Assembly: GCA_050123415.1 (NCBI GenBank)
Contig: JASFHE010000001.1
Coordinates: 10,607 to 74,606, forward strand
Length of the DNA: 64,000 nt
From: Desulfobacteraceae bacterium
Lineage (GTDB): Bacteria; Desulfobacterota; DSM-4660; Desulfatiglandales; HGW-15
Direction of reading: 5' to 3'
Both the position numbers and the translations under genes were made by a program. Below, one piece after another: positions 7,935 to 52,003 of the stretch (its first letter is position 1; the number at the start of each line of letters is the position of its first letter). Under the pieces are notes generated by a model, which made no database searches, was not told the origin of the DNA, and saw only the letters and a program-made list of their open reading frames with translations.

Positions 7935-8165
7935 ATGTCCAGTAAAGACAGGTTAGAAATCAGGAACTGGGTTAAGAATAACCCCGGTGTCCATCCCAAA
8001 TTGCGCGAGTTCTTTGAGGTGCTTGACCGCGACTTGAAGGCGAACAATGTTTGGAGCACCACAACCACAACCACTTCAACTACGACCACCACAACGTCGT
8101 CGACCACAACGTCGTCGAGTACGACCACGACGACCAGTAGTAGCACCACGACGACTACGGAATAG
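7935..8165 (+). CDS. small virion protein: 40-aa head domain plus 35-residue Thr/Ser tail
   Basis: AGGAGAAAGGAG lies upstream of the ATG. The protein is 76 aa and the last 36 are STTTTTTSTTTTTTSSTTTSSSTTTTTSSSTTTTTE. Confidence 0.6.
   Translation: MSSKDRLEIRNWVKNNPGVHPKLREFFEVLDRDLKANNVWSTTTTTTSTTTTTTSSTTTSSSTTTTTSSSTTTTTE
8055..8159 (+). repeat. Thr/Ser-coding tract (35 codons)
   Basis: Mixed ACC/ACA/ACG/ACT/TCG/AGT/AGC codons that encode only T and S. Confidence 0.95.
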
Positions 8166-10013: not shown

Positions 10014-10592
10014 ATGACCGAAGCCCACAGTACCTCATTGTATTCACCAGCAGGGCGAGGTATCCTCTATATTGCGGAGTGGAGTGGAACTACTCCTCCG
10101 ACGGATCCCGACGATTACACTGAAGTCGGTAACTGTCCGTCGCTTGAAGCGGAGCCTACTATTGAACGCCGCCCGCATTATTCTAGCCGTTCTGGTCTCC
10201 GTACCCGCGACCTTAACCCGGTCGTGCAAACGGAGTATAATATCACCTTTGAGTGTGACGAAATGTCCGCCAAGAACCTTGCACGGTTTTTCTTGGGCAC
10301 TCTAAATGCTTCAACCAAGGTGATCGCTGGTCTTCAGAGCGCGGATAAAGAGTATGCCTTGAAGTTCGTTTCCGACAACCCGATCGGGCCCAACCAGATT
10401 TTTTACTACTGGAGAGTAACACTGGGGCCCAACGGACCGCTGCAACTTATCGGCGATGAATACCTGATAATGTCGTTCACGGGAGAGGGCTTGAGCGATA
10501 GTGCCAATCATGCTTCCAGCCCGTATTTTGATATTAAATATGTGACGACAACTACCACAACTACCACAACTACCACAACTACCACAGAGTAA
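10014..10592 (+). CDS. major tail (tube) protein with C-terminal poly-Thr tail
   Basis: Located directly upstream of the chaperone and tape measure genes. 192 aa, ending in V-T14-E. Confidence 0.65.
   Translation: MTEAHSTSLYSPAGRGILYIAEWSGTTPPTDPDDYTEVGNCPSLEAEPTIERRPHYSSRSGLRTRDLNPVVQTEYNITFECDEMSAKNLARFFLGTLNASTKVIAGLQSADKEYALKFVSDNPIGPNQIFYYWRVTLGPNGPLQLIGDEYLIMSFTGEGLSDSANHASSPYFDIKYVTTTTTTTTTTTTTTE
10545..10586 (+). repeat. 14 consecutive Thr codons with 9-bp (ACA ACT ACC) periodicity
   Basis: acg aca act acc aca act acc aca act acc aca act acc aca. Confidence 0.95.
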
Positions 10593-14325: not shown

Positions 14326-15639
14326 ATGCCTTTAAATGGAGCAATTCAGACAGGAACAGTCACCAGTTTCTCCGGTGCAAACGGACTTTTGCAGGCTTTG
14401 TTGGATTTTGTGGCTGGAACAAAAGTAACAGGAGCAACAACGACTGGTTCTGGCTCAGGACCATACACGGCAACCTTGACCACTACTGTTGGTTTAGGAT
14501 CTGTTATCATCAATTATACAGTTGGCGGGATAGATTTCGAGGCACAAGATGATGGTGCGAACGGCTTAAATGATGCAACAGATGGATATATCTCTTCAGG
14601 ATCGATTGATTATGGAACCGGAGCGTTTACAGTAACTTTTACCACAACACCAGATGCAAATCCAACAATTGATTATGTACACGGAGATGATGGTCAGGAC
14701 TGGGAAATTAAATATCAACGTAATACGAGAGATAGCGATAAGTTAACACCAGAGGAGCCATTCGGAAGTGATTGTGAGGAGGTTATTCTACACAACCGTG
14801 GACTATCTGGTGCTGAGAATGTTCTGATTGGTATCCGTGAATGGAAGTATGTTGCTGGCGCTGCATATGGTTGGGATCTTACTGGCTATCAGGCATACAC
14901 GGATGGGATGTATTGGGGAAAGACAATCATTGATGATTTGTCTCTTGATTATGATTCATTATGGGATCATTTTGATGATACTCCAATCCTCCCGCTCATT
15001 GATGATACAATGTACTACTGGTTTTATAGTAACCGTCAGCGCATAGTTGTTATAGTAAAAGTACAGAGCAATTATGAATGTTGTTACATGGGTTTCGCAA
15101 ACCGCTTCGGGAATCCAGAAGATTATCCATATCCGCTTGTTATTAAGGGTTGTGGATATGGTAATATCAACAACACAAGTACTTCACAAAGTAACCATTC
15201 ATATATACCGTATGGACCATCTAATGGAACAGAAATGCTCCATAATGTTCTTCCTAACAATGCTTGGAGTATAAACTGGGGAACAGGATCGACCTACTTT
15301 GCAACATGGCTGTTCCCAACGGCGAATTGGGCAGATACAGGACAGATGTACGAGGCTCCGGCTAAGAAGGAAGTAATGATGACTCCTGTTATTGGTATGA
15401 ATGCGCTAATAAATGCTGGACTTTGGGAACTGGATGGAGTATATCATGTTTCCGGTATCGGTGTCCAATCCGAAGACTACATTCGGGCGCATGATGGAAT
15501 AAAGTACCGGGCTTTTCAGGATATTGCCAGAATAGAATACGACGATTGGATGGGTGTGGCAGAAATAGAATTTACTACCACAAGCACTTCTACAACCACA
15601 ACAACTACTACATCAAGTACCACAACAACTACAGTATAG
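14326..15639 (+). CDS. tail tip protein with C-terminal Thr/Ser tail
   Basis: First gene after the tape measure. 437 aa, ending in TTTSTSTTTTTTTSSTTTTTV. Its central and C-terminal parts look distantly related to the next ORF. Confidence 0.55.
   Translation: MPLNGAIQTGTVTSFSGANGLLQALLDFVAGTKVTGATTTGSGSGPYTATLTTTVGLGSVIINYTVGGIDFEAQDDGANGLNDATDGYISSGSIDYGTGAFTVTFTTTPDANPTIDYVHGDDGQDWEIKYQRNTRDSDKLTPEEPFGSDCEEVILHNRGLSGAENVLIGIREWKYVAGAAYGWDLTGYQAYTDGMYWGKTIIDDLSLDYDSLWDHFDDTPILPLIDDTMYYWFYSNRQRIVVIVKVQSNYECCYMGFANRFGNPEDYPYPLVIKGCGYGNINNTSTSQSNHSYIPYGPSNGTEMLHNVLPNNAWSINWGTGSTYFATWLFPTANWADTGQMYEAPAKKEVMMTPVIGMNALINAGLWELDGVYHVSGIGVQSEDYIRAHDGIKYRAFQDIARIEYDDWMGVAEIEFTTTSTSTTTTTTTSSTTTTTV
15574..15633 (+). 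repeat. Thr/Ser-coding tract (20 codons)
   Basis: act acc aca agc act tct aca acc aca aca act act aca tca agt acc aca aca act aca. Confidence 0.95.
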
Positions 15640-19659: not shown

Positions 19660-22227
19660 ATGGTAACTGGACTAATTATAGCAATTGTCGTTCTTGTTGC
19701 TGGTTTGTATATGGCATCTATGAATAGGCCTGATACGGAGCAACAAGATATGTCTCCAAACACCCTGGAGTCATTTAAAGCAACAACAAATCAGGAAGGT
19801 GCTGTTGTTCCTCTTGTCTTTGGACAGGCAAGAATATCCGCTAATCTTTTGTGGTATGGAAATCTTGAGACCGAAGAAGTAACAGAAGAGGTTGAAACAG
19901 GTGGTAAGGGTGGTGGCGGCGGAAATAAAGAAGATGTTACTGTTGGATATAGATATTACATGGACATATGGGAAGCGCTCTGCATTGGTCCTGGTGTATC
20001 AGTACTTGGGACTTTTGTTAATGACAAGTTTGCCGGTGGAGCACTTGGAACCCTTAATCCAGGTGATACAACTTATTATCCGACGGAACCTGGTAGTTAT
20101 GCGGCGCCTTTAAACCCGGTCGCACATGTTTTCATGAAACGCCAATATCTTGGTGAAAATGTAGCATCAGTGCCAACCTATCATTGGATAGTAAAAAGGC
20201 TTAGTGATGCGCCTTTAACACATGCTAACCTATCAAACGGAGTTAATCCAGCCGCAGCTATCTATGATATGTTACGGATGTCTGGTGCCGAACCTTCTGC
20301 ATTTGTTCTATCTACCTTTCAAGATGCGGCTACTTATTGGTATACCAAAGGATATGGAATTAACATTACTCTCTCCAGGCAGGAGGAGACAAGAAATGGA
20401 ATTAAAAGGATCTTTACTTATGTTGATGGCAATCTTCGGGTGGATAATCAAGACCGCTTTGAACTAATTGCATGGAAAGATACAGATACATATCAGTATA
20501 CAATTGATCAAAACGATATCAAGGAATTTAACTTCAGGCGACGGAGTTGGTATGATGTATATACAGACTTCAGGGCAAACTTTATAGATAGTACACGTTC
20601 ATATACTCAGCGAACAATCAGAGTGCGCAACACAGCCGTTCGGGATATAACTGGACAAGATCGCCAACTAACGGTAGATTTGACAGCATTCATTGACGTA
20701 AATACAGCAAGTAAACGCCTTTGGGAGATTATGAAGCAAATGTCTTATCCAGAAGCGGAAGTGTCAATGAAGGTAAGTTGGAAATATATTGGTGTTCGGG
20801 TTGGTGATGTTGTTCGTGTAAGCTATAATGATTATGGGATATCAGATCTTGATTTCCGCATTATTGGTATAGATATATCCAAAGCTGATTCCAATGAAAT
20901 AACATGGACTTGTAAGCAACTTTTAAGCACTCTCTTTGATGCAAATTTTGAATTAGGAGGAGATCCACAATGGGTTGCTCCAAGTTATTCTCCACAGGTT
21001 CCATATGCGGCGCAAGTATTTGAATTACCCTACAATGAATTCACCGGACGTTCTCCTGCTTATTTACTACTCTGTGCCAGAAAAGGAGCGGAGACTGGCT
21101 TCAAGTGTATGTTATCTATAACCGGAACGGATTATGTAAGTAAAGGAACCTTCGGAACATTCACCCAACATGGTACACTGGATGAGACTTATCCAGCAAC
21201 AACGTATACAATTGATGATGAAATAGGCGTTCTATATACTCCAGATAGGGAAGATCCGCTATTTGATGATCTTGATAGAGCAGACCTTTTTTCAACAATG
21301 CGCTTTGTGATTATAGATGATGAAATTATGGCTTTCCAGAATGTTGATTATGAGGGTGGTGCTGGAGCTATAAGACTGACTGGAATTATTCGTGGAATCC
21401 TGAATACTACTATTGCCCAGCATAACTCCGGCGCTCATATCTGGATCACTGCTCTTCGGAATAATATCTTGAAAAACGTTACATCAACAAATTTTTATAT
21501 TAAGATGTTGCCATATTTTGGAACAGAAGTGGTTGACGCCTCTTCGGTTAGTCCAATATCTGTAACCTATGAAGAGAAGGCTGTGACACCTTGGACTCCA
21601 TGGAATGGTGTTGCAACTCGCTCTGGCTCAGATATCTCCGTTGTCTTGAATAATACTACACAAGAGATCCTTGGAGCTGGAATGAGGGCCGCTGAGAATC
21701 AAACGCTTGAGGAGGTTCATCAGATAGAAGGCTTCATTCAATATGGTATTAACTCCCAGGCAGCACAATACGAATCGGTAACAGCGGAGTTTTCTTATGT
21801 CCAGGCTGGTTCACATTATCTTTATATGCGGCAATACCTTGAAGGAAGATATACCAACTGGGTAAGTATCTATGTTGGTGCGGCAGATGGTGATTACTAT
21901 GTAGCTGCGAATCAGCTTACAAATACAGGTTTGGAGAAGGTTCAATGGGGGTCCCAGGGATTTATCGAAGTAATAAACAGAAATCTTTCAAGACTTAATG
22001 ATGAATTACTTCTCGTATCGGGACTCCTTGATGTAGACCTTTCTGGCCTTGCAGATACAAATGCGTTGACGTGGAATGAATCAGCGCAAAAGTTTGAACC
22101 ACTTGATTTTGAGGTTGCATTTTCAACTACCACGACAACAACCACCACCACAACCACTACAACCACAACCAGCTCAAGTTCCACAACCACAACAACCACA
22201 TCAAGTACCACAACAACTACAGTATAG
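19660..22227 (+). CDS. host specificity / central tail fibre protein (gpJ / GTA g15-like) with C-terminal Thr/Ser tail
   Basis: 855 aa. The N-terminal EGAVVPLVFGQARISANLLWYGNL resembles the gpJ/GTA g15 N-terminus. The C-terminus carries a 65-aa fibre-like module followed by a 33-residue T/S tract, then V. Confidence 0.6.
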   Translation: MVTGLIIAIVVLVAGLYMASMNRPDTEQQDMSPNTLESFKATTNQEGAVVPLVFGQARISANLLWYGNLETEEVTEEVETGGKGGGGGNKEDVTVGYRYYMDIWEALCIGPGVSVLGTFVNDKFAGGALGTLNPGDTTYYPTEPGSYAAPLNPVAHVFMKRQYLGENVASVPTYHWIVKRLSDAPLTHANLSNGVNPAAAIYDMLRMSGAEPSAFVLSTFQDAATYWYTKGYGINITLSRQEETRNGIKRIFTYVDGNLRVDNQDRFELIAWKDTDTYQYTIDQNDIKEFNFRRRSWYDVYTDFRANFIDSTRSYTQRTIRVRNTAVRDITGQDRQLTVDLTAFIDVNTASKRLWEIMKQMSYPEAEVSMKVSWKYIGVRVGDVVRVSYNDYGISDLDFRIIGIDISKADSNEITWTCKQLLSTLFDANFELGGDPQWVAPSYSPQVPYAAQVFELPYNEFTGRSPAYLLLCARKGAETGFKCMLSITGTDYVSKGTFGTFTQHGTLDETYPATTYTIDDEIGVLYTPDREDPLFDDLDRADLFSTMRFVIIDDEIMAFQNVDYEGGAGAIRLTGIIRGILNTTIAQHNSGAHIWITALRNNILKNVTSTNFYIKMLPYFGTEVVDASSVSPISVTYEEKAVTPWTPWNGVATRSGSDISVVLNNTTQEILGAGMRAAENQTLEEVHQIEGFIQYGINSQAAQYESVTAEFSYVQAGSHYLYMRQYLEGRYTNWVSIYVGAADGDYYVAANQLTNTGLEKVQWGSQGFIEVINRNLSRLNDELLLVSGLLDVDLSGLADTNALTWNESAQKFEPLDFEVAFSTTTTTTTTTTTTTTTSSSSTTTTTTSSTTTTTV
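22123..22221 (+). repeat. Thr/Ser-coding tract (33 codons)
   Basis: Codons encode only S and T and use a mixture of ACN/TCN/AGY codons. Confidence 0.95.
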
Positions 22228-24525: not shown

Positions 24526-26016
24526 ATGAAAAAGAAAGATAAAAGAACCATTGGCATTTTCACGAATTTTCAAGAGTTTAATCCTGGTTATAGCCTAACC
24601 GGCATTGTTGTTGATCAATCATTAATGCTCCTGGAAAACGGACATGATGTTCATGTGTTCGTCAATGAAACCTTCAATTCGAAATACAATCAGGACGCAA
24701 GAATCTCCTACCTAATGAATAAATTCAGAGGGAAATTTCATTTACATAAAGCGACCAAGTTTATGCATTTGATTGATTATGAAACAAAATCCACCCTTAC
24801 GGAAGACCACAAAAAAGCCCTAATCGATGCTGCAAAGATCTTTACAGATAGCATTTTAAAATTTGACATTGATCGGATTTATACCCACGATTTTATTTTT
24901 ACTGGATGGAATCTTCCGTATGCTCTTGCAATAAAAGAAGCAAGCAGACTTCTATCCATAGCTGGCAAACAAGTTTATTGGCTCCATTGGATCCATAGTG
25001 TGCCAGGATCCCATCGGAGAGATTGGTGGGATATTAATCAGTATGGGGATAATCATCTGATTGTATTTCCAAATAATATTGAAATTAATCGGATATGTGA
25101 AACATTTATGACAAATCCGTCAAGGGTCCGTATGATTCCACACATTAAAGATATCCGTACATGGTACGATTTTTCTGATGAATCGTGGGAATTCACAAAA
25201 CGGTATCCTCAGATAATGGAAGCAAATGTGGTCCAAGTTTATCCTATCTCAACCGACCGCATGTCAGCAAAGCAATTACAATTGGTGATCAAAATATTTG
25301 GTTATATGAAACAAGCCAAAGTTCCTGTTTTCCTGTGTGCTGCAAATCAATGGGCTACCGGTCGCCGGCGCAAGGAAGATGTTAATAAATACATCCTTCT
25401 TGCGGAACATTGTGGTCTTGAATATGGTAAGGAATTTGTCTTTACTTCTGAATATTCATATGATCCAGTACTTAATGATATTATCGAAAGCTCGGAGAAT
25501 TTCGAGGAATTAGATCAAAGATTACCGAAATGCGAATCTTCCGGAGATGAAAAAGATGATACATATGGGCAATTCCTAAAAGGTATTAAATGGGATGGTG
25601 ATTTTGCGGAAGAAAAAGTCCGACTTCTGCAACTCTCCCAACCATATGCTACAGGTATCAGCCGCCGGATGCTTCGCGAACTTCAACTCCTATCTAATTT
25701 ATTTATTTTTCCAACCCGTGAGGAGAGTTTTGGATTGGTTGGGCCAGAGGCAGCATTTTCAGGTGCCTTATGTATTATTAATCGAAGCTTAATTATGCAG
25801 TTTGAGGTTATGGGTTCAAATGCTCCGGCGTTTGACTTTGGTTCACACTATAATAATACTCCAAGTATTAATGATGAAAAATATATCCGTGGAGTCTCCT
25901 TTGCGATTCTAAATCGGATTTATTCTAATGAGGCGATCACGACCAAAATCCATTGTCGCCGGCGATACAACATGAACTCGATTTATAACCGGTATTATGT
26001 TCCCAATGCAATATAA
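24526..26016 (+). CDS. GT-B fold glycosyltransferase (GT4/GT1-like)
   Basis: GGAG lies upstream of the ATG. N-terminal IGIFTNF...GYSLTGIV...NGHDVHVF and C-terminal FIFPTREESFGLVGPEAAFSGAL (the E-x-FG...EA...G signature). Confidence 0.55.
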   Translation: MKKKDKRTIGIFTNFQEFNPGYSLTGIVVDQSLMLLENGHDVHVFVNETFNSKYNQDARISYLMNKFRGKFHLHKATKFMHLIDYETKSTLTEDHKKALIDAAKIFTDSILKFDIDRIYTHDFIFTGWNLPYALAIKEASRLLSIAGKQVYWLHWIHSVPGSHRRDWWDINQYGDNHLIVFPNNIEINRICETFMTNPSRVRMIPHIKDIRTWYDFSDESWEFTKRYPQIMEANVVQVYPISTDRMSAKQLQLVIKIFGYMKQAKVPVFLCAANQWATGRRRKEDVNKYILLAEHCGLEYGKEFVFTSEYSYDPVLNDIIESSENFEELDQRLPKCESSGDEKDDTYGQFLKGIKWDGDFAEEKVRLLQLSQPYATGISRRMLRELQLLSNLFIFPTREESFGLVGPEAAFSGALCIINRSLIMQFEVMGSNAPAFDFGSHYNNTPSINDEKYIRGVSFAILNRIYSNEAITTKIHCRRRYNMNSIYNRYYVPNAI

Positions 26017-26025
26017 GTGGGCGCC

Positions 26026-26700
26026 ATGCATATTGCTATTATACCAACAATGGAGATGGATCGTTGTCTCGATCTTGTTTACTCTATAAATAAAGGGAAA
26101 ATTAAACCAAGCAGAATTATTATTATCAATAATTCTGGTTCTGTTTACACTAAGGATTTATCTTTATATAATACTATTGTATGTAATTATTCTAAAAATA
26201 TTGGTGTAAATGCAGCATGGAACATTGGTTTAAAACTTGCCAAAGAGCAGTCCTCGCATTTATCTATATTAAATGATGATATTCTAATCAAAGAAGACTT
26301 TTTCAAAAGGATCAATCTCCTTCTTTCCATTAGATTATTACTCGATGTTCCTGTCTTTTGCCCATCTACAACTCATGATAAAACTTTATTTGATCGGTCG
26401 GAAGTAAATAATCATACAAGCCGGACTCATTATATGAGGAAGAAAGAAGGTTGGGCTTTTACAATCCGAGACCGGTTTGTTAAAATGATCAAACCGATTC
26501 CAGAGGAATTATTTGTTTTCTGTGGAGATGATTGGATTTGGAATGAAACGGTTAAGTATGGTACGATGTGGGTAAAAGATGAAAGAAATATTATCTACCA
26601 TACGGTTGGAGCAACTTTAAAAAATAACCCCAAACTCCGTGCTTTATTGAAGCATGAGAAAAGGATATTTCATGGGAAGGGTAAGTCTTGGAAGGCATAG
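26026..26700 (+). CDS. GT-A fold glycosyltransferase (GT2-like)
   Basis: HIAIIPTMEMDRCLDLVYSI...IIIINNSGS...NIGVNAAWNIGLKLA...LSILNDDILI is the typical GT2 N-terminal Rossmann region with a DD motif. The alternative GTG 26017 start directly follows the upstream stop. Confidence 0.6.
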   Translation: MHIAIIPTMEMDRCLDLVYSINKGKIKPSRIIIINNSGSVYTKDLSLYNTIVCNYSKNIGVNAAWNIGLKLAKEQSSHLSILNDDILIKEDFFKRINLLLSIRLLLDVPVFCPSTTHDKTLFDRSEVNNHTSRTHYMRKKEGWAFTIRDRFVKMIKPIPEELFVFCGDDWIWNETVKYGTMWVKDERNIIYHTVGATLKNNPKLRALLKHEKRIFHGKGKSWKA

Positions 26701-27184
26701 TTATGGAGATATTAAAGTAATTGGACAACGTTGCCATGTCTATGTTGGTAACTTTTGCTCTATTGCTGACCATGTTAAGGTGATTGTCCTCGGGCATGAT
26801 CCAAACAATGTTTCCACATATCCTTTTAATAAGAAAAACTGGCAAAGGGCCGCCGATTCAAAAACGCATCCGGTTGTTTACGGAGATGTCCATATCGGGA
26901 ATGATGTTTGGATCGGTTACAATGTAACGATAATGGGTGGAGTAAAGATTTGTGATGGAGCAGTGATTGCTGCCGAATCAGTTGTAACGAAAAATATTGA
27001 ACCTTATACAATTAATTATGGTGTTCCAACCAGAGTAAAACGTTTAAGATTTACTCCATCAATTGTTTATAAATTATTAAATATAAAATGGTGGGAGTGG
27101 CCGGATGAAAAGATCGCCGAAAACGCTCATTTGCTTTGCAGTAAAAACATTGATGAATTCATAAGACTTCACGGGAGGAAGTAA
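26672..27184 (+). CDS. hexapeptide-repeat (LbH) acetyltransferase, Vat/CatB/sugar O-acetyltransferase-like
   Basis: GRHSYGD...VGNFCSIADHVKVI...YPF...GDVHIGNDVWIGYNVTIMGGVKICDGAVIAAESVVTKNIEPYTINYGVPTRVKRLRF. An alternative ATG lies at 26654. Confidence 0.75.
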   Translation: MGRVSLGRHSYGDIKVIGQRCHVYVGNFCSIADHVKVIVLGHDPNNVSTYPFNKKNWQRAADSKTHPVVYGDVHIGNDVWIGYNVTIMGGVKICDGAVIAAESVVTKNIEPYTINYGVPTRVKRLRFTPSIVYKLLNIKWWEWPDEKIAENAHLLCSKNIDEFIRLHGRK

Positions 27185-27185
27185 A

Positions 27186-27758
27186 ATGGCAATCAAGACA
27201 CCGAGGGAATATCGGCAGATGGAATTCAGGCAATTACTTTTCGAATTGGTATGCCTGCTCAAACCACATACTTATGTGGAGATTGGAGTAAAAGACGGGT
27301 GGACATTCAATAAGATTGCTCCACTTGTTGAACGCGCCGTTGGTGTGGATATTGTAGCGTCTCCAGTAGAAAGACTTCCACATGTTGAATTTATCCATGA
27401 TAATTCTGCCAGGTTTGCAAAAACATGGAAGGATCCAATCGATTTCCTTTTTATTGATGCATACCACGAATGTGAAGGAGTCTTACTTGATTTCTACCGT
27501 TTGCATCCTTTCGTTCGGCCAGAAACCGGAATGATTTTTCTCCATGATACATATCCTGTGAAACCGGAATTACTTCTTCCAGGTTATTGTCACAATGCAT
27601 GGAGAGCGGCAAAGACGATCCGGGAGAAGTTTGTTGAAGAATTTGAAATTGTTACACTCCCCGGTCCGTGGGCAGGCCTCTCAATACTTCGGAAATTGAA
27701 AGATGGCAGGCACGGGTGGATGGACAAAGATGCCTTCGCTGGAGGGAGAGGAAGATGA
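27186..27758 (+). CDS. class I SAM-dependent methyltransferase (Methyltransf_24-like)
   Basis: YVEIGVKDGWT (motif I), GVDI, and FLFIDAYHECEGVLLDF...GMIFLHD. Confidence 0.65.
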   Translation: MAIKTPREYRQMEFRQLLFELVCLLKPHTYVEIGVKDGWTFNKIAPLVERAVGVDIVASPVERLPHVEFIHDNSARFAKTWKDPIDFLFIDAYHECEGVLLDFYRLHPFVRPETGMIFLHDTYPVKPELLLPGYCHNAWRAAKTIREKFVEEFEIVTLPGPWAGLSILRKLKDGRHGWMDKDAFAGGRGR

Positions 27759-28897
27759 CTAAATTACTTTTTCTTTTTATGAGCCAAGGGGCAGCATCTC
27801 CTGGAACGACTAAACGGGTGTATCCAACAAATGATTGTGGAACAAAATATATGGATGCATTTGCAGGAGAAGGCTATTTCAAGATGCTGGATGTACTCCT
27901 CAAAAATAAAGTGATTGATGACTTGAAGATTTTCTTTGAGTCGAATGTCCAGCCCGGCATAGCGTCCTGGGTGAAGGGCCCTTCAACATATTGCGAAGTA
28001 ATTCCGGAGATTCGTTTTGTTGAGGAGTATATTGAGGAGGACACAATCATCTTTGTCCGCGGCGGGTTTAAACACTGGCATGATTTACTTTTGAAATACA
28101 AAAATAAAAATTGGCTTTTACTTTATGGTGCAAATACCGGAAGAGAAAGATGGACATGGTGGGATATTATTTTTGATGATATCTTGTGTAAAAATGAAAT
28201 TGATCGGCATGGAAGATATTGGTTTCCTTTTATCAAACCAATAAATGAGGAGATGTTTTTTCCGGAAGATACGATACGGCAGCAACCAATTCCTCAATGG
28301 GACTTTTGCATCGGAGCATCTCATATTCATGACAGGAAAGGACAATGGAGAATTTTTAACGCTATACTGGAATATAATAAAAAATATGGAGAACTTCATA
28401 CGATTATGCCTGGCGGACCGCGACGTGGATTGAAAACGCTTGAGATGATTAAAAATCTTCCGAATGCAAAGTATGTAGAAACGCCCGGTCATGTTCATCG
28501 AACCGAACTTCAGAGAATTTTTAATGATTCAAAATATTTTATCCACTTTGGTGCTCATGGACAAAATGACCGCGGTCCGATTGAGGCACTTGCATGTGGG
28601 ACACCTGTAGTAATTGGTTCTCCGAGTTATCATGCACCATTCTTATCTGATATATGTTACACGGGTTGCAATATTAATGATCCGGTTTCGATAGCAGAGA
28701 GTTTGAAGATATTACTTGAACGCTGGACAATTGAGGAGAAAAGTAAAACATATTGGAAATATAAGAAGAAAAGTGGATTCAATGAAATAATTATTCCAAG
28801 GATGATAATGCTATTTTCTCTCATAAAACACATGAAACCAACAATAAAGGCAAAACAACTTATAATGGAGGAGGTAATGAATCATGCGATCAGTTAG
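27755..28897 (+). CDS. probable GT-B-like glycosyltransferase
   Basis: ATG 27755 overlaps the upstream TGA (ATGA). The C-terminal YFIHFGAHGQNDRGPIEALACGTPVVIG resembles the GT-B C-terminal domain. Weaker than the other GT calls. Confidence 0.4.
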   Translation: MTKLLFLFMSQGAASPGTTKRVYPTNDCGTKYMDAFAGEGYFKMLDVLLKNKVIDDLKIFFESNVQPGIASWVKGPSTYCEVIPEIRFVEEYIEEDTIIFVRGGFKHWHDLLLKYKNKNWLLLYGANTGRERWTWWDIIFDDILCKNEIDRHGRYWFPFIKPINEEMFFPEDTIRQQPIPQWDFCIGASHIHDRKGQWRIFNAILEYNKKYGELHTIMPGGPRRGLKTLEMIKNLPNAKYVETPGHVHRTELQRIFNDSKYFIHFGAHGQNDRGPIEALACGTPVVIGSPSYHAPFLSDICYTGCNINDPVSIAESLKILLERWTIEEKSKTYWKYKKKSGFNEIIIPRMIMLFSLIKHMKPTIKAKQLIMEEVMNHAIS

Positions 28898-29510
28898 TAA
28901 AATGTATGGTGATAGTTTCTTCCATCGTAGGAAGAAGTTGATTTGGCGCGCTCCAATACTTTGTGAAATTATTAAAGAAATATTTCCTGGTGCAAAAAGT
29001 ATCATTGATGTTGGTTGCGCCATTGGAGAGTTTGTACATCAATTCCAAAAAATGGGGATATCTTCAGAAGGTATTGAGGGTAGTGAAAGTGCATTAAAGT
29101 ACGCATCTCCAGAGACCGGTATATCATTATGGGATATTAGAACACCATTACCTACCTCAAAAACCTGTATTGGTAAAACATGGAATTTGTGCATGTGTCT
29201 TGAAGTTGCAGAACATATCGAAGAGGAATATACAAATATATTTATTGATAATCTTTGCTTCTTATCAAATACTATTTTGATATCTGCTGCACCCCCAGGA
29301 CAACAAGGATACGGTCATTTTAATTGTCAAAAAATGGAATATTGGGAAATCAAATTCGGAATTAGAGACTACAGGAGAAGAGTTGAAAAAGAAAAGCGTT
29401 TTAAAAGTCTCCTTGAACCTTACAAGAGGAAGAAGGGTTTGAGTGGATATTATAACAATATCATGATTTATGAACATAATGATATTATATTGCATAAATA
29501 TTGGGGGTAA
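28884..29510 (+). CDS. class I SAM-dependent methyltransferase (Methyltransf_11/23-like)
   Basis: IIDVGCAIGEFV (motif I), GIEGSESA, and WNLCMCLEVAEHIEEEY. Confidence 0.7.
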   Translation: MRSVSKMYGDSFFHRRKKLIWRAPILCEIIKEIFPGAKSIIDVGCAIGEFVHQFQKMGISSEGIEGSESALKYASPETGISLWDIRTPLPTSKTCIGKTWNLCMCLEVAEHIEEEYTNIFIDNLCFLSNTILISAAPPGQQGYGHFNCQKMEYWEIKFGIRDYRRRVEKEKRFKSLLEPYKRKKGLSGYYNNIMIYEHNDIILHKYWG

Positions 29511-29511
29511 A

Positions 29512-30282
29512 ATGAATAAGGAAATATTTGATATTACTTGTACAGCAACACTTCGACCAGGACTCCTCGATAGAACACTTTCTTCATTTACAAAGAATTT
29601 ATTCAAGGAAAGGATATCTTGTGCAAGGCTTATTATTAATATTGATATGGCTGGTGCAGAAAAAAGCAGAGAAAAACAGAAATTGATTGATGTAATCAAT
29701 GTAATAGATAAATATCCTTTTTGCAGAAGAGAAATTAGGATTGGAAGAGAGCCGCATTTCCCAACAGCTTTTACTTGGTGTATGGATGAAGTCTACAGCA
29801 AGTATTTTTTTCATCTTGAGGAAGATTGGGAATTGCTTTTTCCTATCGATTTTGAAGCAATGTGGGGTTTACTTGACAAGTATGGAGACCTTGCCCACCT
29901 TCGATTATCGCAATTTACTTCCGAAGAGTTTCGGTGTAAAAATTGGAACAAGTTTCTTGTCTGGAACGGAGAATTCTTTGAAGTGCCGCTCGATGAAAAA
30001 TTGGTGATCGGATGGGCTGGCCATCCGTCGCTCAATCGATCATCTTTTATAAAAGACTGTCTACCATACATTGATCGAATGGCAAATCCCGAAAAGCAGA
30101 TCAAAGGCAAGATACATCCATGTATAACTCAATCAATTAATGCACACAGGTTTGGTTCATTTCATCCACAAAACTCGCCGAATTCAATTGTGGATATCGG
30201 GCGAGAGTGGATGGTCAATAATGGGTGGAGTAAAGCAGGCAATAAAGCCTGGTTCACCAATTGGGAAAGGAGTAATCAGTAA
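29512..30282 (+). CDS. hypothetical protein, possible GT-A-like enzyme
   Basis: ATG lies 1 nt after the upstream TAA. ITCTATLRPGLLDRTLSSF...ARLIINIDM...FFHLEEDWELLFP is loosely GT-A-like, with an acidic EED in place of DxD. Uncertain. Confidence 0.3.
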   Translation: MNKEIFDITCTATLRPGLLDRTLSSFTKNLFKERISCARLIINIDMAGAEKSREKQKLIDVINVIDKYPFCRREIRIGREPHFPTAFTWCMDEVYSKYFFHLEEDWELLFPIDFEAMWGLLDKYGDLAHLRLSQFTSEEFRCKNWNKFLVWNGEFFEVPLDEKLVIGWAGHPSLNRSSFIKDCLPYIDRMANPEKQIKGKIHPCITQSINAHRFGSFHPQNSPNSIVDIGREWMVNNGWSKAGNKAWFTNWERSNQ

Positions 30283-31322
30283 TGGATTTATCTATCATCA
30301 TTCCGTTTGTTGGAGAATACCCGCAAGTATTATGGACAATTCAATCGATTGCACAAGGCTTGATTGAAACGGAGATTGAGTTTGAAATTATTGCAGTGGA
30401 TAACTACTGCGAACAGGCTGTCCGTCAATGTAATGTGGCAACTCAGAAAGCAATTGACAAATTGAAACAGATTTACTTCAACGAAGGAAGAGAAATTGAG
30501 GCTTCCGATATGTTTGAAATCCATGACATGATCCCGCCAATTTATAAAAATAGAAGCGGAGAGGCAATCAAGGCTTGTGCGCGTGGGAATCCGTGGCTCC
30601 GTTATGTTGAATATCCTGACAGTTTATCACATTGGCAGGCAAAGCGTGTTGGTGTTCAAGAATCAGATGGAAAAGTTCTCCTGTTTGTTGATGCACATAC
30701 CATTCCGTCGGTTGATGCAATTGAAGAAATGTTTTTAGAATATACACGTGGATCATACAATGAAAATGGAACAATGCATTTACCTTTAACATACAAGATC
30801 CTTGAATGGCACCGATTGATCTACAAGTTTTTTGTTGAGAATGAATTTTTCTACAGTTATAAGTTTACTCCTTTCAGACAAGCCAAAGAGCCGTACGAGG
30901 TACAATGCATGTCAACTTGTGGCATGATGATCTCCAGAAGTATTTATGATCAACTCGGCGGCTGGCCAGCAACTCTTGGAGTTTATGGTGGCGGAGAAAA
31001 TTTCATGAATTATACGCTGGCAGTATGCGGTTTTAAGAAGTGGATATATCCGCATGGGACGCTTTTTCATCATGCGGATAGACGTGATTACCATTGGTAT
31101 GGTGATAATTTGATTTATAACAGGATGCTTGCTCATTATCTTTTCGGGGGTAAAGACTTGTTGGCGAAGTTTACTTCTATTTGTAAAGGTAGACCATCTA
31201 CTCTGCAAATGTTTGCAGAGATGGCCCTTAAGGAAGGTTTCGATCAACGGCAGCAAATCAAATCAATTCAAAAAATGACTATTGAGGAATGGGCGGAGAA
31301 ATGGAGAGAAAATGAACTTTAA
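30282..31322 (+). CDS. GT-A glycosyltransferase resembling polypeptide GalNAc-transferases (GT27/GT2, DxH type)
   Basis: - LSIIIPFVGEYPQVLWTIQSI and EIIAVDNYC form the GT-A N-terminal region.
- KVLLFVDAHTIP carries the D-x-H metal motif, as in LTFLDSHCE.
- GVYGGGENFMNYTLAVCGFKKWIYPHGTLFHHADR parallels the Gal/GalNAc-T motif [32 protein letters not shown]. Confidence 0.6.
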   Translation: MDLSIIIPFVGEYPQVLWTIQSIAQGLIETEIEFEIIAVDNYCEQAVRQCNVATQKAIDKLKQIYFNEGREIEASDMFEIHDMIPPIYKNRSGEAIKACARGNPWLRYVEYPDSLSHWQAKRVGVQESDGKVLLFVDAHTIPSVDAIEEMFLEYTRGSYNENGTMHLPLTYKILEWHRLIYKFFVENEFFYSYKFTPFRQAKEPYEVQCMSTCGMMISRSIYDQLGGWPATLGVYGGGENFMNYTLAVCGFKKWIYPHGTLFHHADRRDYHWYGDNLIYNRMLAHYLFGGKDLLAKFTSICKGRPSTLQMFAEMALKEGFDQRQQIKSIQKMTIEEWAEKWRENEL

Positions 31323-31731
31323 AGATTACCTTTGTAAATTCGAAAGACAAGTAATTTATACAGGGTTTATGATGGGTCGTTTCGGAGAACGCAAGGAAGA
31401 GATTGTGCCTCTCCGATATGGAAAATTATCAAAGTCGGAATTTGGAGAATTCATTGAAAAGACATTTGATGCTGGTGTTTTACTTGCGATCAATTATTAT
31501 GGACTTTTCAAACTATCGACTGAAATAATTAAAGCGGCTGAATCTGTGAGACATATTTTTGGAGAAATTCGATCCATAAAATCTCCAGTTGTTCATTTTA
31601 ATTCCATAAAAATTGAGGATGTTAAGGAACTTGCACCAGAGTTGTTTCCGGATTATCTAGAATTCAAGAAGTATATTGTGGAATTGAGATGGGGCCAGCG
31701 TGATGCCAGCCCAGATTTAAAGATTATTTAA
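31312..31731 (+). CDS. hypothetical protein (last gene of plus-strand arm)
   Basis: ATG 31312 overlaps the end of the upstream gene. No motif recognised. Confidence 0.45.
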   Translation: MNFKDYLCKFERQVIYTGFMMGRFGERKEEIVPLRYGKLSKSEFGEFIEKTFDAGVLLAINYYGLFKLSTEIIKAAESVRHIFGEIRSIKSPVVHFNSIKIEDVKELAPELFPDYLEFKKYIVELRWGQRDASPDLKII

Positions 31732-32107
31732 GAGAGTTCAGGAAGTTAATGAATTTCTGAAACATTGCAAACCATTTTTCACGAATAAGCCCGCCAAATC
31801 CATTTGTCCAGAATTCATTGTTAGCTTGTTGAATTCTTTCCTTATCTGTTTCATATTGCTTCACATAAGGCGGCCAGTTTGGTGTATTTCCATAGATGGA
31901 GATGAGTTCATTTATTTCTGCTTTTGTTTTACAATCAATCAACGGCCGTTTGAAATTTCTGATAAAATTTTCTTGTGCAAGTCTGATTTGAAGACCAAAA
32001 CCATCATTGTAAAAATGGGCTTGGTAATGTTCATCAGTCGGTGATACAGGTTGGAGAATTTGAGCTGCTTCTGCCAATGTTTCCTTATTGAAATATTTTG
32101 GTTTCAT
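31724..32107 (-). CDS. hypothetical protein (last gene of minus-strand arm)
   Basis: Its 3' end overlaps the plus-strand gene by 8 nt (convergent). Confidence 0.5.
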   Translation of the reverse strand: MKPKYFNKETLAEAAQILQPVSPTDEHYQAHFYNDGFGLQIRLAQENFIRNFKRPLIDCKTKAEINELISIYGNTPNWPPYVKQYETDKERIQQANNEFWTNGFGGLIREKWFAMFQKFINFLNSLK

Positions 32108-32128
32108 TTGTTTCTAAATCTCCTTTGT

Positions 32129-32389
32129 TTAAAACTTTTTAAGAAATGTACCAGGATTGATTGCGGTTATAACTCTTTTCAGGCATTCAAGCATACCTTG
32201 AAAAGAAGGATGTACGAGGATCATAATAGCTACATTAAGTTCGTGACCACAACCTATGCAGTTATCTCTCCATATTTTGGTTACGTCCTTGTCGAAGATA
32301 CGAAGGTCAATCTTCTGAACCTTGCCGCATTTCGGGCATTGCACCATTGGGGTTCTTTCTTCTTGTTGGATTTTAATTAGTTCGCCCAT
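32129..32389 (-). CDS. Zn-ribbon protein
   Basis: CPKCG...CIGCG. Confidence 0.5.
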   Translation of the reverse strand: MGELIKIQQEERTPMVQCPKCGKVQKIDLRIFDKDVTKIWRDNCIGCGHELNVAIMILVHPSFQGMLECLKRVITAINPGTFLKKF

Positions 32390-32397
32390 GTTTTCTC

Positions 32398-33018
32398 CTA
32401 TTCTTTGAATGCTGTAGGTTTGATTTCGGATTCGATTGGCAATTGCTCCAAACGATGGATTAAGTTCAGGAATTCCGAGGAGATTTTGTTTACATCAATC
32501 TCCTCCTTGATTAACCTGGCAAGTGTACGTCGGCCTTTCTCGATATGCTTCCTGGCACCAGCACCGCCAAATTTGGTGCGTTTTTTCATTACTTCGGTTA
32601 TAAGGTGATAAGTGTTCCACCAGTAGGCGTAGACATAGACAAAACGACGACGAAGGTTGACAAGTTGTTCATCCTTTTCTAAATCCAGGTCTTTTATTTT
32701 CGCTCGGAGTATTTTATTAAAATGATGACTCCAGATCCCAAATTCGGTTTCAATGTCTTCCCACATCAACATCCATTTGGCCCTGGATGCGCGTTCTTTT
32801 TTCTTTGCACCCGTCGGTTTTCGAAATGGCAGGATGTATTTTTGCAAAGTTGCAGTTACCAAATCAACCTGTGCCATCATATCAATAGGATGCATTTCTT
32901 TTAACTTATCTTCATCCCACTCCATGATATTTTCAAGACCAAGTGTGTAAACAAATCCAATTGACTCGATCATCTCCAGTGGAGTTTTTCTTTTTTCCTC
33001 GGTCGTCGTTTCTTCCAT
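32398..33018 (-). CDS. hypothetical protein
   Basis: 206-aa ORF in operon register. Confidence 0.5.
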   Translation of the reverse strand: MEETTTEEKRKTPLEMIESIGFVYTLGLENIMEWDEDKLKEMHPIDMMAQVDLVTATLQKYILPFRKPTGAKKKERASRAKWMLMWEDIETEFGIWSHHFNKILRAKIKDLDLEKDEQLVNLRRRFVYVYAYWWNTYHLITEVMKKRTKFGGAGARKHIEKGRRTLARLIKEEIDVNKISSEFLNLIHRLEQLPIESEIKPTAFKE

Positions 33019-43076: not shown

Positions 43077-43246
43077 TGAATTGTTTTTCCTTCTTTCACA
43101 ATAAGGTTGCAAAGTATCGCCTCATTTTCATCGATATTCCGGTCAAGATGACATTGACACCTCCAGTCTGGTTTTTCTTCTCCGACCGGGTTATTGCGGA
43201 ATAATGGTTCATCAAAACAACTGACATAGCAAACAGAGCAATGCAT
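43073..43246 (-). CDS. Cys-rich miniprotein (57 aa, below the track cutoff)
   Basis: ATG 43246 overlaps the dCMP deaminase stop (TGATG). Hand translation gives MHCSVCYVSCFDEPLFRNNPVGEEKPDWRCQCHLDRNIDENEAILCNLIVKEGKTIQ. Confidence 0.4.
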   Translation of the reverse strand: MHCSVCYVSCFDEPLFRNNPVGEEKPDWRCQCHLDRNIDENEAILCNLIVKEGKTIQ

Positions 43247-43791
43247 CACAACCTCCTATCGGAAGTAAAGGACATTATGATTCTTTTGATTTGGTTTATT
43301 TCGGAATGTGTGAAATGGATTTCTTCCGTTTCAAGTTTATATTCCTCTGCCTTCTTGAGCCAATATCTATCGCGTTCCTCGTCATCACTCTGGTAAATAA
43401 GTTCATAATATATTTTAGTGATTCCGACTCGTTTGATATTCTTTAGACAGTGAATGCATGGGAATAAAGTGCAGTAAAGAACAGAACCACGGAGACCGAT
43501 TCCGCCGAATTCTGCTATTTGGTTGATGGCGTTTTGTTCTGCATGAATCGATGGGCAGTCCTGGTACTTTTTAATTCCGGAATCATCTCTTCCAAGTTCT
43601 CTCCGCAAACAGAATTTGGGCCCTTTATCCGTGCATTGCGGCTCGCCAGGCATACTGCCATTATAGCCGGTTGCAACGACTCGCCTACCGGAAACAATTA
43701 CTGCTCCGGTAGGACGAGAGTTGCAACCGGACCTCACGGCGGCCAGTTTTGCCAACGCCATGAAGTACTTATTCCAAGGAAGCCGGTTCAT
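43246..43791 (-). CDS. dCMP deaminase
   Basis: WNKYFMALAKLAAVRSGC, HAEQNAI (H-A-E zinc/catalytic motif), and LFPCIHCLKNI (P-C-x-x-C). ATG 43791 overlaps the upstream TAA. Confidence 0.85.
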   Translation of the reverse strand: MNRLPWNKYFMALAKLAAVRSGCNSRPTGAVIVSGRRVVATGYNGSMPGEPQCTDKGPKFCLRRELGRDDSGIKKYQDCPSIHAEQNAINQIAEFGGIGLRGSVLYCTLFPCIHCLKNIKRVGITKIYYELIYQSDDEERDRYWLKKAEEYKLETEEIHFTHSEINQIKRIIMSFTSDRRL

Positions 43792-43997
43792 TAATCTGCC
43801 GCTCTGGAATACGGAAATTTCCGCATCCGCAGGGCACATTCAAAAGCATCGCGGAGTTTTTCGTCCGAAGCATGGAAGTTTTCTTTGATCCATTCAAGGA
43901 CGATTCTGGGCGACGAAGCATCTTGGGCCCGCAAGGTAAACATTTCCTCATCGTCTCCAATTTTAACCAATGTTGGACATGTTGATTTAAGTGCCAT
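43791..43997 (-). CDS. hypothetical protein
   Basis: 68-aa ORF with AAGGAG upstream. Confidence 0.45.
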   Translation of the reverse strand: MALKSTCPTLVKIGDDEEMFTLRAQDASSPRIVLEWIKENFHASDEKLRDAFECALRMRKFPYSRAAD

Positions 43998-44016: not shown

Positions 44017-44118
44017 GTTAAAGTATATCATATAAAGAACCCCTAATGATATACCAATCCATATTCCGGATGAAAAGCCTTGCCACCAAATTTTCCAAAA
44101 ATCTTTTTTGTTATTCAT
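44017..44118 (-). CDS. tiny membrane peptide (33 aa)
   Basis: The ATG overlaps the TS-like gene stop (ATGA). Sequence MNNKKDFWKIWWQGFSSGIWIGISLGVLYMIYFN. Confidence 0.25.
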
Positions 44119-51783: not shown

Positions 51784-52003
51784 ATTTTTTTTCACTCCAT
51801 AATAAACAGGGGCCTTGTCCTGAACCAACAATATACCATCCTATTTTTTTATGCCTTCCGATGCCAATAAGTGGCTCGGAGTTATCAACTACTTCCTTGC
51901 ATTCTTTTGGCATTATGTCATAAAAATGTTTCCATAATTCAGAAGGAAGCATTATTTTTTCAAGTTCTAAATATCCAGTTTCTTTTGTTCTCATAAGAAG
52001 CAT
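51776..52003 (-). CDS. hypothetical protein
   Basis: 75-aa ORF. Confidence 0.4.
   Translation of the reverse strand: MLLMRTKETGYLELEKIMLPSELWKHFYDIMPKECKEVVDNSEPLIGIGRHKKIGWYIVGSGQGPCLLWSEKKYE

Follow-up and report, generated by a model that had tools for sequence, protein, structure and literature searches.

To our knowledge, a few mycobacteriophages are the only phages in which experiments have shown phage-encoded enzymes to glycosylate the virion, and there the modification affects antibody recognition. The GT60 enzymes of Dictyostelium and Trypanosoma (PF11397) are GT-A enzymes related to family GT27; they start O-glycosylation of Skp1 or of acceptors rich in Thr/Ser, and some act in the cytoplasm. 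As far as papers citing the original study report it, mycobacteriophages use their own glycosyltransferases to glycosylate the C-termini of capsid and tail-tube proteins (Freeman et al. 2023, Cell Host Microbe 31:1216, cited in PMC12363180 and PMC12619734). For GT27 itself, mouse GALNT1 was crystallised with Mn2+, and the Asp and His of its DxH motif as well as a distal His are important (PMC4202792).

Here we report a GT27-like enzyme encoded by a siphovirus in the window, a term by which we denote the whole 64,000-nucleotide stretch of DNA that was analysed. We consider it probable that this enzyme is a soluble, cytoplasmic, metal-dependent initiator of O-glycosylation on the poly-Thr/Ser tails of virion proteins, and that the cassette around it extends and decorates the glycan. 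The gene ends a 7-kb glycan cassette, which itself closes the late structural operon and shares the strand of the virion genes. Besides a GT4-type partner, this cassette contains further candidate glycosyltransferases, two methyltransferases and one acyltransferase. The frequencies given below were counted over 71 related loci.

24526..26016, plus strand: GT4-type retaining GT-B glycosyltransferase, 496 aa, with an E400-x7-E408 motif; 57/71 loci
26026..26700, plus strand: possible small GT-A enzyme; weak GT2 and rhamnosyltransferase matches; 22/71 loci
26672..27184, plus strand: hexapeptide-repeat acyltransferase, 170 aa (E 6e-12)
27186..27758, plus strand: Methyltransf_24-type methyltransferase, 190 aa (E 6.7e-10)
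27755..28897, plus strand: GT-B glycosyltransferase, GT1/GT4-like, 380 aa from the called start; 38/71 loci
28884..29510, plus strand: SAM-dependent methyltransferase, 208 aa; 40/71 loci
29512..30282, plus strand: conserved 256-aa protein with an HLEDDW (DxD-like) motif, possibly a GT-A enzyme (weak); its stop overlaps the GT start; 41/71 loci
30282..31322, plus strand: GT27-like GT-A glycosyltransferase, 346 aa, predicted to be soluble; motifs, conservation, PDB profile and AlphaFold model
31312..31731, plus strand: small ORF, 139 aa, overlapping the GT stop codon; 23/71 loci

For the 256-aa protein there was no PDB profile match, and 2 of 29 members matched GT2 faintly. A 601-aa homologue, P0364, was considered as a fusion of the GT with this protein and rejected, being a tandem of two GT27-like domains. 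The 139-aa ORF is fused in frame to the GT in another homologue, P0069. A scan for sigma-70 promoters and terminators around the cassette yielded nothing informative, and no clue to the host came from any tRNA gene in the window.

The reading frame of the GT27-like gene agrees exactly with the initial annotation (30282..31322, plus strand, ATG start, 346 aa), and the segments quoted there (MDLSIIIPF, EIIAVDNYC, LLFVDAHTIP and GVYGGGENFMNYTLAVCGFKKWIYPHGTLFHHADR) are all found in its translation. In a set of 44 homologues with 45–83% identity, D137 and H139 are invariant, which bears out the claimed D-x-H motif, and so are G237, G238, E239, N243, H263 and R268; N240 is kept in 41 of the 44. Judged from the aligned sequences, this motif conservation is well above chance. 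The YGGGEN motif occupies residues 235–240, and the Gal/GalNAc-T motif region reads Y235-G-G-G-E239-N240-F-M-N243. The pairing with GalNAc-transferases that had been drawn by hand is reproduced by HMMER, which sets FvDah against FLDSHC and YgGGen against WGGEN or WGGEQ. The same type of alignment pairs H263 with the His of ...GHVF in GalNAc-T7, GalNAc-T4 and Toxoplasma GalNAc-T3, and D137-x-H139 together with H263 forms the candidate metal site.

Pfam assigns the protein to PF00535 (Glycos_transf_2; 37.3 bits against a cut-off of 23.3, E 3.3e-9), as it does all 44 members, but this is a broad model which does not discriminate the type of acceptor. Glyco_transf_7C matches 4 of the 44 weakly (best E 0.01), and the enzyme has no family in PHROGs or NCBIfam. 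The ricin-type lectin domain is absent as claimed: residues 274–345 form three helices, and Pfam finds no lectin domain. No membrane segment was found either (highest 19-residue Kyte-Doolittle mean 1.04), and in the AlphaFold model the first strand begins already at residue 3. Because it lacks a hydrophobic segment, the enzyme should be cytoplasmic, where virions assemble.

The AlphaFold model has a pLDDT of 95.9 and a pTM of 0.93. When it was compared with the PDB using Foldseek, the best 50 matches, to which this statement applies, were GT27 chains without exception (E 7e-14 to 1e-10, TM on query 0.51–0.68); the next GT-A family lies outside these 50, and no GT60 structure is among them. Phage proteins annotated 'Glycosyltransferase, GlcNAc' appear among weaker structural matches (E ~1e-8). 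The family profile, searched against 177,635 distinct PDB sequences, gave 18 matches at E<=1, 13 of them polypeptide GalNAc-transferases. GalNAc-T10 ranks first at E 5e-5, a modest signal at the sequence level, and the next family is heparosan synthase at E 0.13. The GT27-type reading, which had been set against that of a GT2 enzyme not directed at proteins, is thus supported by both searches, whose matches are mainly or entirely GT27. Since the identity to GT27 enzymes is only 12–15%, we file the enzyme as a GT27-like phage family with a GT-A fold, as judged from profile and model, and claim no demonstrated membership of CAZy GT27. The low identity, the missing lectin domain and the missing membrane anchor set it apart from canonical GT27.

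The Thr-rich tails to which the initial annotation had alluded are present at the C-termini of four virion proteins, all encoded on the plus strand.

7935..8165, plus strand: 76-aa protein encoded immediately behind the major capsid gene; Ser/Thr tail of 36 residues; candidate head-decoration acceptor; tail in 36/37 homologues
10014..10592, plus strand: major tail (tube) protein, ending ...KYV-T14-E; candidate acceptor; tail in 109/120 homologues
14326..15639, plus strand: 437-aa tail protein directly after the tape measure gene, with a Thr/Ser tail; candidate acceptor; tail in 13/17 homologues
19660..22227, plus strand: 855-aa tail protein (Phage-tail_3, gpJ-like), with a 33-residue Thr/Ser tail; candidate acceptor from its sequence

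In a second set of tube homologues the tail is found in 56 of 67. Tails are absent from the scaffold (0/37), the major capsid protein (0/45), the tape measure protein (0/47) and the connector ORFs (0 of 41–53 each), and the tails are hence both conserved and selective for certain virion proteins. A simple-repeat or slippage artefact was dismissed, since the tails draw on a mixture of Thr codons and on both Ser codon families, and particular proteins keep them across homologues. The possibility that the major capsid gene continues by frameshift into the 76-aa ORF was set aside as well, this ORF having its own ATG and ribosome-binding site. The chemistry of the tails (poly-Thr, poly-Ser or SESS-type) co-varies within genomes, which suggests that enzyme specificity and acceptor sequence co-evolve.

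A tailed ORF lies within 10 kb of the GT gene in at least 24 of the 71 GT-bearing viral loci, nearly always upstream and on the same strand, a lower bound obtained from 10-kb flanks and from loci that are not phylogenetically independent; the flanks of the other 47 hold no tailed ORF. Four long contigs carry the GT together with a Thr-tailed tube gene, and in seven long contigs with tail-less distant tube homologues no GT was detected. The 52.8-kb contig 3300002053_000024 has a Thr-tailed tube gene, and a pattern-based scan detected no GT in it. Among roughly 2.9 million contigs there are at least 119 loci with poly-Thr runs, and among the 80 contigs listed for them, 2 coincide with the 70 GT contigs. 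The GT family itself comprises 839 cluster representatives among 1.84 billion.

Because the enzyme is closest to the mucin-type initiators and the poly-Thr tails look like its targets, the phage probably coats its tail and its head with sugars. Transfer to the Thr tails we infer from the homology and from the co-distribution of gene and tails. What we propose for acceptor, donor sugar, stereochemistry, order of enzyme action and role of the coat would run as follows. Late in infection, the enzyme would be made alongside the virion proteins, from a gene on their strand at the distal end of the structural operon. It would bind a divalent metal via D137, H139 and H263 together with a host UDP-sugar, and would transfer the first sugar to Thr (and Ser) hydroxyls in the disordered tails of the tube, the small head-associated protein and the two tail proteins. 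By analogy with GT27, whose enzymes use UDP-GalNAc as donor and transfer with retention to Ser/Thr of polypeptides, the reaction would be a retaining one here too and give an alpha-O-linked hexose or HexNAc. The GT4-type GT-B enzyme and other glycosyltransferases of the cassette may then lengthen the glycan, while the two methyltransferases and the hexapeptide acyltransferase may decorate it. A mucin-like glycan brush would result along the tail and on the head; on the tail it might serve protease resistance, colloidal stability or adhesion to host polysaccharide or particles.

The tails could also be glycosylated with the first sugar coming from another enzyme of the cassette, most plausibly the 496-aa GT4-type GT-B glycosyltransferase, so that the GT27-like enzyme would extend the glycan on a sugar acceptor. 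GtfA, likewise of the GT4 type, puts the first O-GlcNAc on serine-rich-repeat adhesins in the cytoplasm of bacteria, and given this precedent and the near-constant co-encoding (no gene accompanies the GT27-like gene more constantly than the GT4-type one, in 57 of 71 loci) the 496-aa enzyme could be the initiator; fold similarity at 12–15% identity, moreover, leaves the acceptor specificity of the GT27-like enzyme unfixed. We nevertheless regard this arrangement as unlikely, for the best 50 fold matches of the partner are enzymes with sugar or small-molecule acceptors (MshA, BshA, PimB', WaaG), none of them protein-directed and neither GtfA nor OGT among them, whereas the best 50 of the GT27-like enzyme are all protein-directed. 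The wider family points the same way. A distant homologue from an independent lineage (L199; E 1.9e-10, with CMDSHV, GFGGEEG and WVHRF) immediately follows the genes for a Thr-rich protein and a collagen-like tail fibre, in a 13.7-kb locus that has no GT4-type match; searched as a single sequence, this homologue itself found no PDB match. In another member, P0491, the N-terminus is a PqqD domain (PF05402, E 1e-10), which we take to be a peptide-binding RiPP recognition element, and this fusion fits peptide acceptors in the wider family.

We give almost no credence to the reading that the cassette glycosylates phage DNA, as a hypermodification of hydroxymethylated pyrimidines, and not virion proteins. 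The window does encode, beside a dCMP deaminase, a divergent member of the thymidylate-synthase family (44115-44870), a family which also includes pyrimidine hydroxymethylases, and DNA is a well-known substrate of phage glycosyltransferases (Pyle et al. 2024, as cited in PMC12619734). The best matches of this homologue are, however, ordinary ThyA enzymes, the cassette forms the end of the late structural operon, whose strand is opposite to that of the replication and nucleotide genes, and the nearest structural relatives of the GT27-like enzyme are peptide-directed. DNA glycosylation would also leave the conserved, selective poly-Thr tails and their co-distribution with the GT unexplained. That same tie to the virion genes, by gene position and by co-distribution, makes it very improbable in our view that the cassette modifies a host envelope glycan, in serotype conversion or superinfection exclusion, or makes a free oligosaccharide, with the poly-Thr tails as unglycosylated spacers or adhesive linkers. 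Phage GT2-type enzymes often modify O-antigen, generic GT2 is the only Pfam assignment of the GT27-like enzyme, and some homologues bear the JGI pipeline label 'glycosyltransferase involved in cell wall biosynthesis', but the enzyme has no membrane segment, neither a flippase nor GtrA-like or polyprenol-linked machinery was found in the cassette, and the annotated parts of the window showed neither an integrase nor a lysogeny gene.

If O-glycosylation of the virion tails, begun by the GT27-like enzyme, is indeed what the cassette achieves, glycosylation of phage virions would be much more widespread, and here it would draw on another family of enzymes and another kind of acceptor, long homopolymeric Thr tails that recall mucins. 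Glycobiology would gain a GalNAc-transferase relative that is small, soluble and built of one domain, which E. coli could produce and which might be put to use in glycosylating Thr-rich tags; studies of how mucin-type O-glycosylation evolved would furthermore have a point of reference outside the eukaryotes. We go one step further only tentatively, with somewhat less than even confidence: this uncultured siphovirus lineage may possess a genuine mucin-type coat, in which the long poly-Thr tails of tube, baseplate-proximal and head-decoration proteins are O-glycosylated in the host cytoplasm by a GT27 relative free of lectin domain and anchor. It would be the first GT27-type initiator of a prokaryotic virus and might serve as an outgroup when the origin of mucin-type O-glycosylation is traced. 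Full-text literature searches for GT27 with bacteriophage and for O-glycosylation of threonine-rich phage tails found no prior description.

A relative in a cultured phage came from a search of 50,697 phage records, in which blastn with positions 27000-33000 gave no match and tblastn with the GT gave a single, distant one. This protein, gp2 of Tunturiibacter phage Tunturi_4 (PP885687.1, annotated 'glycosyltransferase'), is a distant family member with 22% identity whose alignment spans the whole protein, C-terminal helices included (hhalign 98.7%, E 3e-16). It retains the D-x-H motif (FLDNHC) and has YAGEE where our enzyme has YGGGEN. Its gene lies between terminase and portal, inside the structural module, and the structural proteins of Tunturi_4 have no poly-Thr tails. 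For the GT60 polypeptide alpha-GlcNAc-transferases, a match to the profile PF11397 was found neither with our enzyme (E<=1) nor with any of the 44 homologues (E<=0.1).

The mycobacteriophage systems (Che8 gp108-110, Corndog, Myrna), as far as citing papers and, for Che8, the GenBank record describe them, resemble our proposal in that a multi-enzyme cassette with phage-encoded glycosyltransferases acts on the C-termini of virion subunits, the tail tube included. Che8 gp108, gp109 and gp110 are not detectably related to our enzyme (hhalign probability 1.5%, 1.4% and 0.3%), and the Che8 capsid and tube proteins end in ...KTGS and ...SDGS, without poly-Thr tails. Our phage, by contrast, combines its GT genes with Ser/Thr tails on the tube and on the head-associated protein, the latter encoded after a major capsid gene whose own product bears none. 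The GT genes of Che8 are found at the right genome end, far from the structural genes, whereas the cassette described here ends the structural operon.

The closest likeness is to the GT27 enzymes (GalNAc-T1, T2, T4, T7, T10 and T12, Drosophila PGANT9 and Toxoplasma GalNAc-T3), which among solved structures are the best profile and fold matches and have the GT-A catalytic fold in common with the phage enzyme. Both have D-x-H in place of the usual D-x-D, with D137 and H139 aligning to the DSH of GalNAc-T10, GalNAc-T4 and Toxoplasma GalNAc-T3, and both have the GGEN core of the Gal/GalNAc-T motif. The third metal ligand of GT27 is a His downstream of this motif (His344 in mouse GALNT1), to which H263 would be equivalent by alignment. 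In the phage family, however, the invariant Asn243 replaces the second Glu of WGGENxE, and the SFR part of WGGENxExSFR is absent. Three C-terminal helices take the place of the lectin domain of the animal enzymes, and a helical insertion between residues 44 and 100, not present in all homologues, is a further difference. Finally, GT27 enzymes are held in the Golgi lumen by a type II membrane anchor, whereas their phage-encoded relative has no signal anchor and is predicted to be cytoplasmic; the acceptors of the one and the presumed acceptors of the other are alike, clustered Thr and Ser residues in disordered, mucin-like sequence.

The open reading frame at 30282-31322 (+ strand, ATG start, 346 aa) encodes a glycosyltransferase (GT), for which the initial annotation had proposed the D-x-H and GGEN motifs of the polypeptide GalNAc-transferases (CAZy family GT27), the initiators of mucin-type O-glycosylation. 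Reading frame and coordinates were confirmed, and all quoted peptides are present in the translation. A database search gave 639 homologues. In an alignment of 44 homologues with 45-83% identity to the window protein, D137 and H139 are invariant, as are G237, G238 and E239, and N240 is found in 41; N243, H263 and R268 are also invariant. The hand-made alignment to the GalNAc-transferases was reproduced by HMMER. Indeed, the window sequence alone already gave GalNAc-T7 and GalNAc-T10 among three weak PDB matches, with YGGGEN...H paired to WGGEN...GH.

Family databases place the protein only broadly: Pfam returned the general Glycos_transf_2 model alone (E 3.3e-9), Glyco_transf_7C matched weakly in 4 of the 44 family members, and neither PHROGs nor NCBIfam holds a family matching the window GT. 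The question of GT27 versus generic GT2 was addressed with a family profile searched against all solved structures. Eighteen distinct sequences were found at E<=1, and 13 of them are polypeptide GalNAc-transferases, with T10 as the best match (E 5e-5), followed by TgGalNAc-T3, T4, T7 and PGANT9 (E 0.006-0.008) and, more weakly, by T12, T1 and T2. The closest non-GT27 family is heparosan synthase (E 0.13). Additionally, an alignment-based AlphaFold model (pLDDT 95.9, pTM 0.93) gave only GT27 enzymes among its best 50 Foldseek matches in the PDB (E 7e-14 to 1e-10, TM on query 0.51-0.68, identity 12-15%); the margin to the next GT-A family is read from the sequence-profile search and not from these 50 rows. 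Mouse GALNT1 was crystallised with Mn2+, with the DxH Asp and His and a distal His named (PMC4202792), and D137, H139 and H263 align to these three residues. The ricin-type lectin domain is missing, as had been noted; the model shows three helices instead (residues 274-345). The protein also lacks a membrane anchor (maximum 19-residue hydropathy 1.04), carries Asn243 where WGGENxE has its second Glu, and contains a helical insertion, located between residues 44 and 100, that is missing from some homologues. Because of these differences we class it as GT27-like and not as a member of GT27.

The family is real yet rare, and in essence metagenomic. An exhaustive profile search of 1.84 billion cluster representatives gave 839 relatives with E<=1e-3, of which 117 reach E<=1e-30. 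Against 50,697 phage records, a DNA comparison of 27000-33000 gave no match to any annotated phage genome, and the GT had one distant protein homologue, gp2 of Tunturiibacter phage Tunturi_4 (22% identity; full-length hhalign match at 98.7%; D-x-H retained). In one relative from outside the phage lineage of the window, P0491 (423 aa), an N-terminal PqqD domain (PF05402, E 1e-10) is fused to a GT that retains FSDAHV, YGGEE and HH...RRGY. PqqD domains are peptide-binding recognition elements in RiPP pathways, and the fusion is consistent with a wider family whose acceptors are peptides. Another relative, P0493 (548 aa), is a DUF6065-GT fusion.

The GT gene lies near the end of a siphovirus late operon, which occupies the + strand from the window start to 31.7 kb and closes with a tightly packed cassette whose gene ends abut or overlap.

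Late operon and glycan cassette, with C-terminal tails
5990-6871, + strand, scaffold protein
6923-7885, + strand, SU10-type major capsid protein
7935-8165, + strand, 76-aa protein, gene directly downstream of the capsid gene, start codon (ATG) and ribosome-binding site of its own; 36-residue tail
10014-10592, + strand, major tail protein (tube); tail ...KYV-T14-E
11220-14315, + strand, tape measure protein
14326-15639, + strand, 437-aa protein encoded downstream of the tape measure; Thr/Ser tail
19660-22227, + strand, 855-aa gpJ-like tail protein; 33-residue tail (tail proteins reach as far as 22227)
24526-26016, + strand, GT4-type GT-B
26026-26700, + strand, possible small GT-A
26672-27184, + strand, hexapeptide acyltransferase
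27186-27758, + strand, Methyltransf_24 methyltransferase
27755-28897, + strand, GT-B
28884-29510, + strand, methyltransferase
29512-30282, + strand, 256-aa protein with HLEDDW motif
30282-31322, + strand, GT27-like gene
31312-31731, + strand, 139-aa ORF

Four of these virion genes end in poly-Thr/Ser tails, which makes their products the candidate acceptors. In the tails every one of the four Thr codons is used, as are the two Ser codon families. This mixture rules out slipped DNA repeats and shows that the tails are maintained at the protein level. Under a strict criterion, 109 of 120 tube homologues (54-89% identity) carry poly-Thr tails; poly-Ser or acidic SESS-type tails account for most of the remainder. 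The proteins that bear tails are a strikingly selective set. In 66 viral loci centred on the tube gene, a Ser/Thr tail was found on the small head-associated protein (36/37), the tube (56/67) and the post-tape-measure tail protein (13/17), and never on the scaffold (0/37), the major capsid (0/45), the tape measure (0/47) or any of the four connector ORFs (0 of 41-53 each). The 76-aa protein has a 40-residue N-terminal part and is without a family in PHROGs or Pfam; probably it decorates the head, with the tail as its main feature. In the SESS-type loci, where this was compared, tail chemistry co-varies within genomes, SESS-type tubes being paired with SESS-type small head proteins. SESS-type tails occur in loci L105, L106, L108, L109, L116 and L117, poly-Ser tails in L114, L119, L129, L135 and L144.

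Enzyme and tails are found together, in counts that are lower bounds from phylogenetically non-independent loci: in 24 of 71 GT-fetched viral loci one or more tailed ORFs lie within the available 10 kb, nearly always upstream of the GT and on the same strand. Two GT contigs with no tail in this range (those of L040 and L060) were met independently in a scan for runs of at least 12 Thr codons. On four contigs, each of at least 40 kb, the GT occurs together with a Thr-tailed tube gene, and a pattern-based scan detected no GT on seven contigs (59-110 kb) with distant, tail-less tube homologues. Three Thr-tailed contigs gave no detected GT; in two the tube lies near the contig end, and the third (3300002053_000024) is possibly an exception or a miss of the scan. 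Outside the lineage, locus L199 (from a 130-kb contig) encodes a distant GT homologue (E 1.9e-10; CMDSHV, GFGGEEG, WVHRF) whose gene directly follows that of a 223-aa protein with a poly-Thr region at its C-terminus; the gene of this protein is in turn preceded by a collagen-like tail-fibre gene. Tandem GT27-like domains, L199-type and then window-type, occur in P0364 (601 aa) and P0367 (740 aa). The poly-Thr scan gave at least 119 viral loci with such a run; among the 119 listed, only 9 have C-terminal tails, and most of the nine clearly belong to this lineage. The IMG/VR locus L238 (4331-8773, - strand) encodes large structural-looking proteins (1030 and 450 aa) in which several poly-Thr linkers separate the domains, besides C-terminal Thr tails, showing that Thr-rich segments serve as inter-domain spacers too.

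The most constant neighbour of the GT gene is the GT4-type partner (57 of 71 loci), and the other cassette genes are present or absent in blocks, a pattern suggestive of a conserved core to which variable decoration is added. This 496-aa protein has an E-x7-E signature with invariant E400 and E408. Its model (pLDDT 92) gave, as the best 50 fold matches, GT-B enzymes with small-molecule or sugar acceptors, including MshA, BshA, PimB', WaaG and glycogen and trehalose synthases, with no protein-directed enzyme among them; this favours a predicted order in which the GT27-like enzyme would act first and the GT4-type enzyme second. The 139-aa ORF overlaps the GT stop codon, is present in 23 of 71 loci and has no PDB sequence match; possibly it serves the enzyme as an accessory domain. 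In the homologue P0069 (463 aa), ORF and GT are combined in a single reading frame (46% identity over 109 aa, E 9e-31), a single case that could be an assembly error.

From 31.7 kb onwards the genes lie on the opposite strand and form a replication module, with a Pol III alpha-UDG fusion, DnaB-like helicase, clamp loader, RecA, DNA methylase, dCMP deaminase and a divergent thymidylate-synthase-family protein. The unusual replicase-UDG fusion (48349-51831, - strand, 1160 aa) joins PHP, NTPase and finger domains to a C-terminal uracil-DNA-glycosylase-superfamily domain (residues 990-1127, E 1e-16). The thymidylate-synthase-family gene (44115-44870, - strand) adjoins the dCMP deaminase gene (43246-43839, - strand). 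Its product matches part of the Pfam model (E 8e-9), with ThyA as the best PDB matches (2e-4), and may be either a regular ThyA or a pyrimidine hydroxymethylase, a distinction relevant to possible modification of the phage DNA. A few GT copies lie on contigs of Desulfobacteraceae, Deltaproteobacteria, Thorarchaeota and Thermoplasmatota bins (L073-L078). At minimum L073 and L074 resemble this type of phage in having Thr-tailed ORFs and the GT4-type partner, so that the binned contigs are probably of phage origin and are at most a weak hint to host or habitat.

That the cassette glycosylates phage DNA would fit the thymidylate-synthase-family gene, but we give this a low probability given the cassette position, the peptide-directed relatives of the GT and the tails, which it leaves unexplained. 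Modification of the host envelope is unlikely for a soluble GT without lipid-carrier machinery. As the likeliest mechanism, and a moderately probable one, we propose that the GT would act in the cytoplasm as a metal-dependent enzyme initiating O-glycosylation on the poly-Thr tails of virion proteins, and that the rest of the cassette would then extend the glycan and add methyl and acyl decoration. The initial annotation, which held that an enzyme of this type would be needed to attach the first sugar to Thr-rich tails, is supported as far as computation reaches.

Our literature search found no prior description of such a system. In the mycobacteriophages Che8, Corndog and Myrna, phage-encoded enzymes are reported to glycosylate the C-termini of capsid and tube (Freeman et al. 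2023, cited in PMC12363180 and PMC12619734). Che8 gp108, gp109 and gp110 show no detectable relationship to the GT family (hhalign <=1.5%), and neither the Che8 capsid (...KTGS) nor its tube (...SDGS) ends in poly-Thr. The function would thus be analogous, with another enzyme family and another acceptor design. Phage-encoded virion glycosylation is already known; new here are the GT27-like enzyme family and, as putative acceptors, the mucin-like tails.
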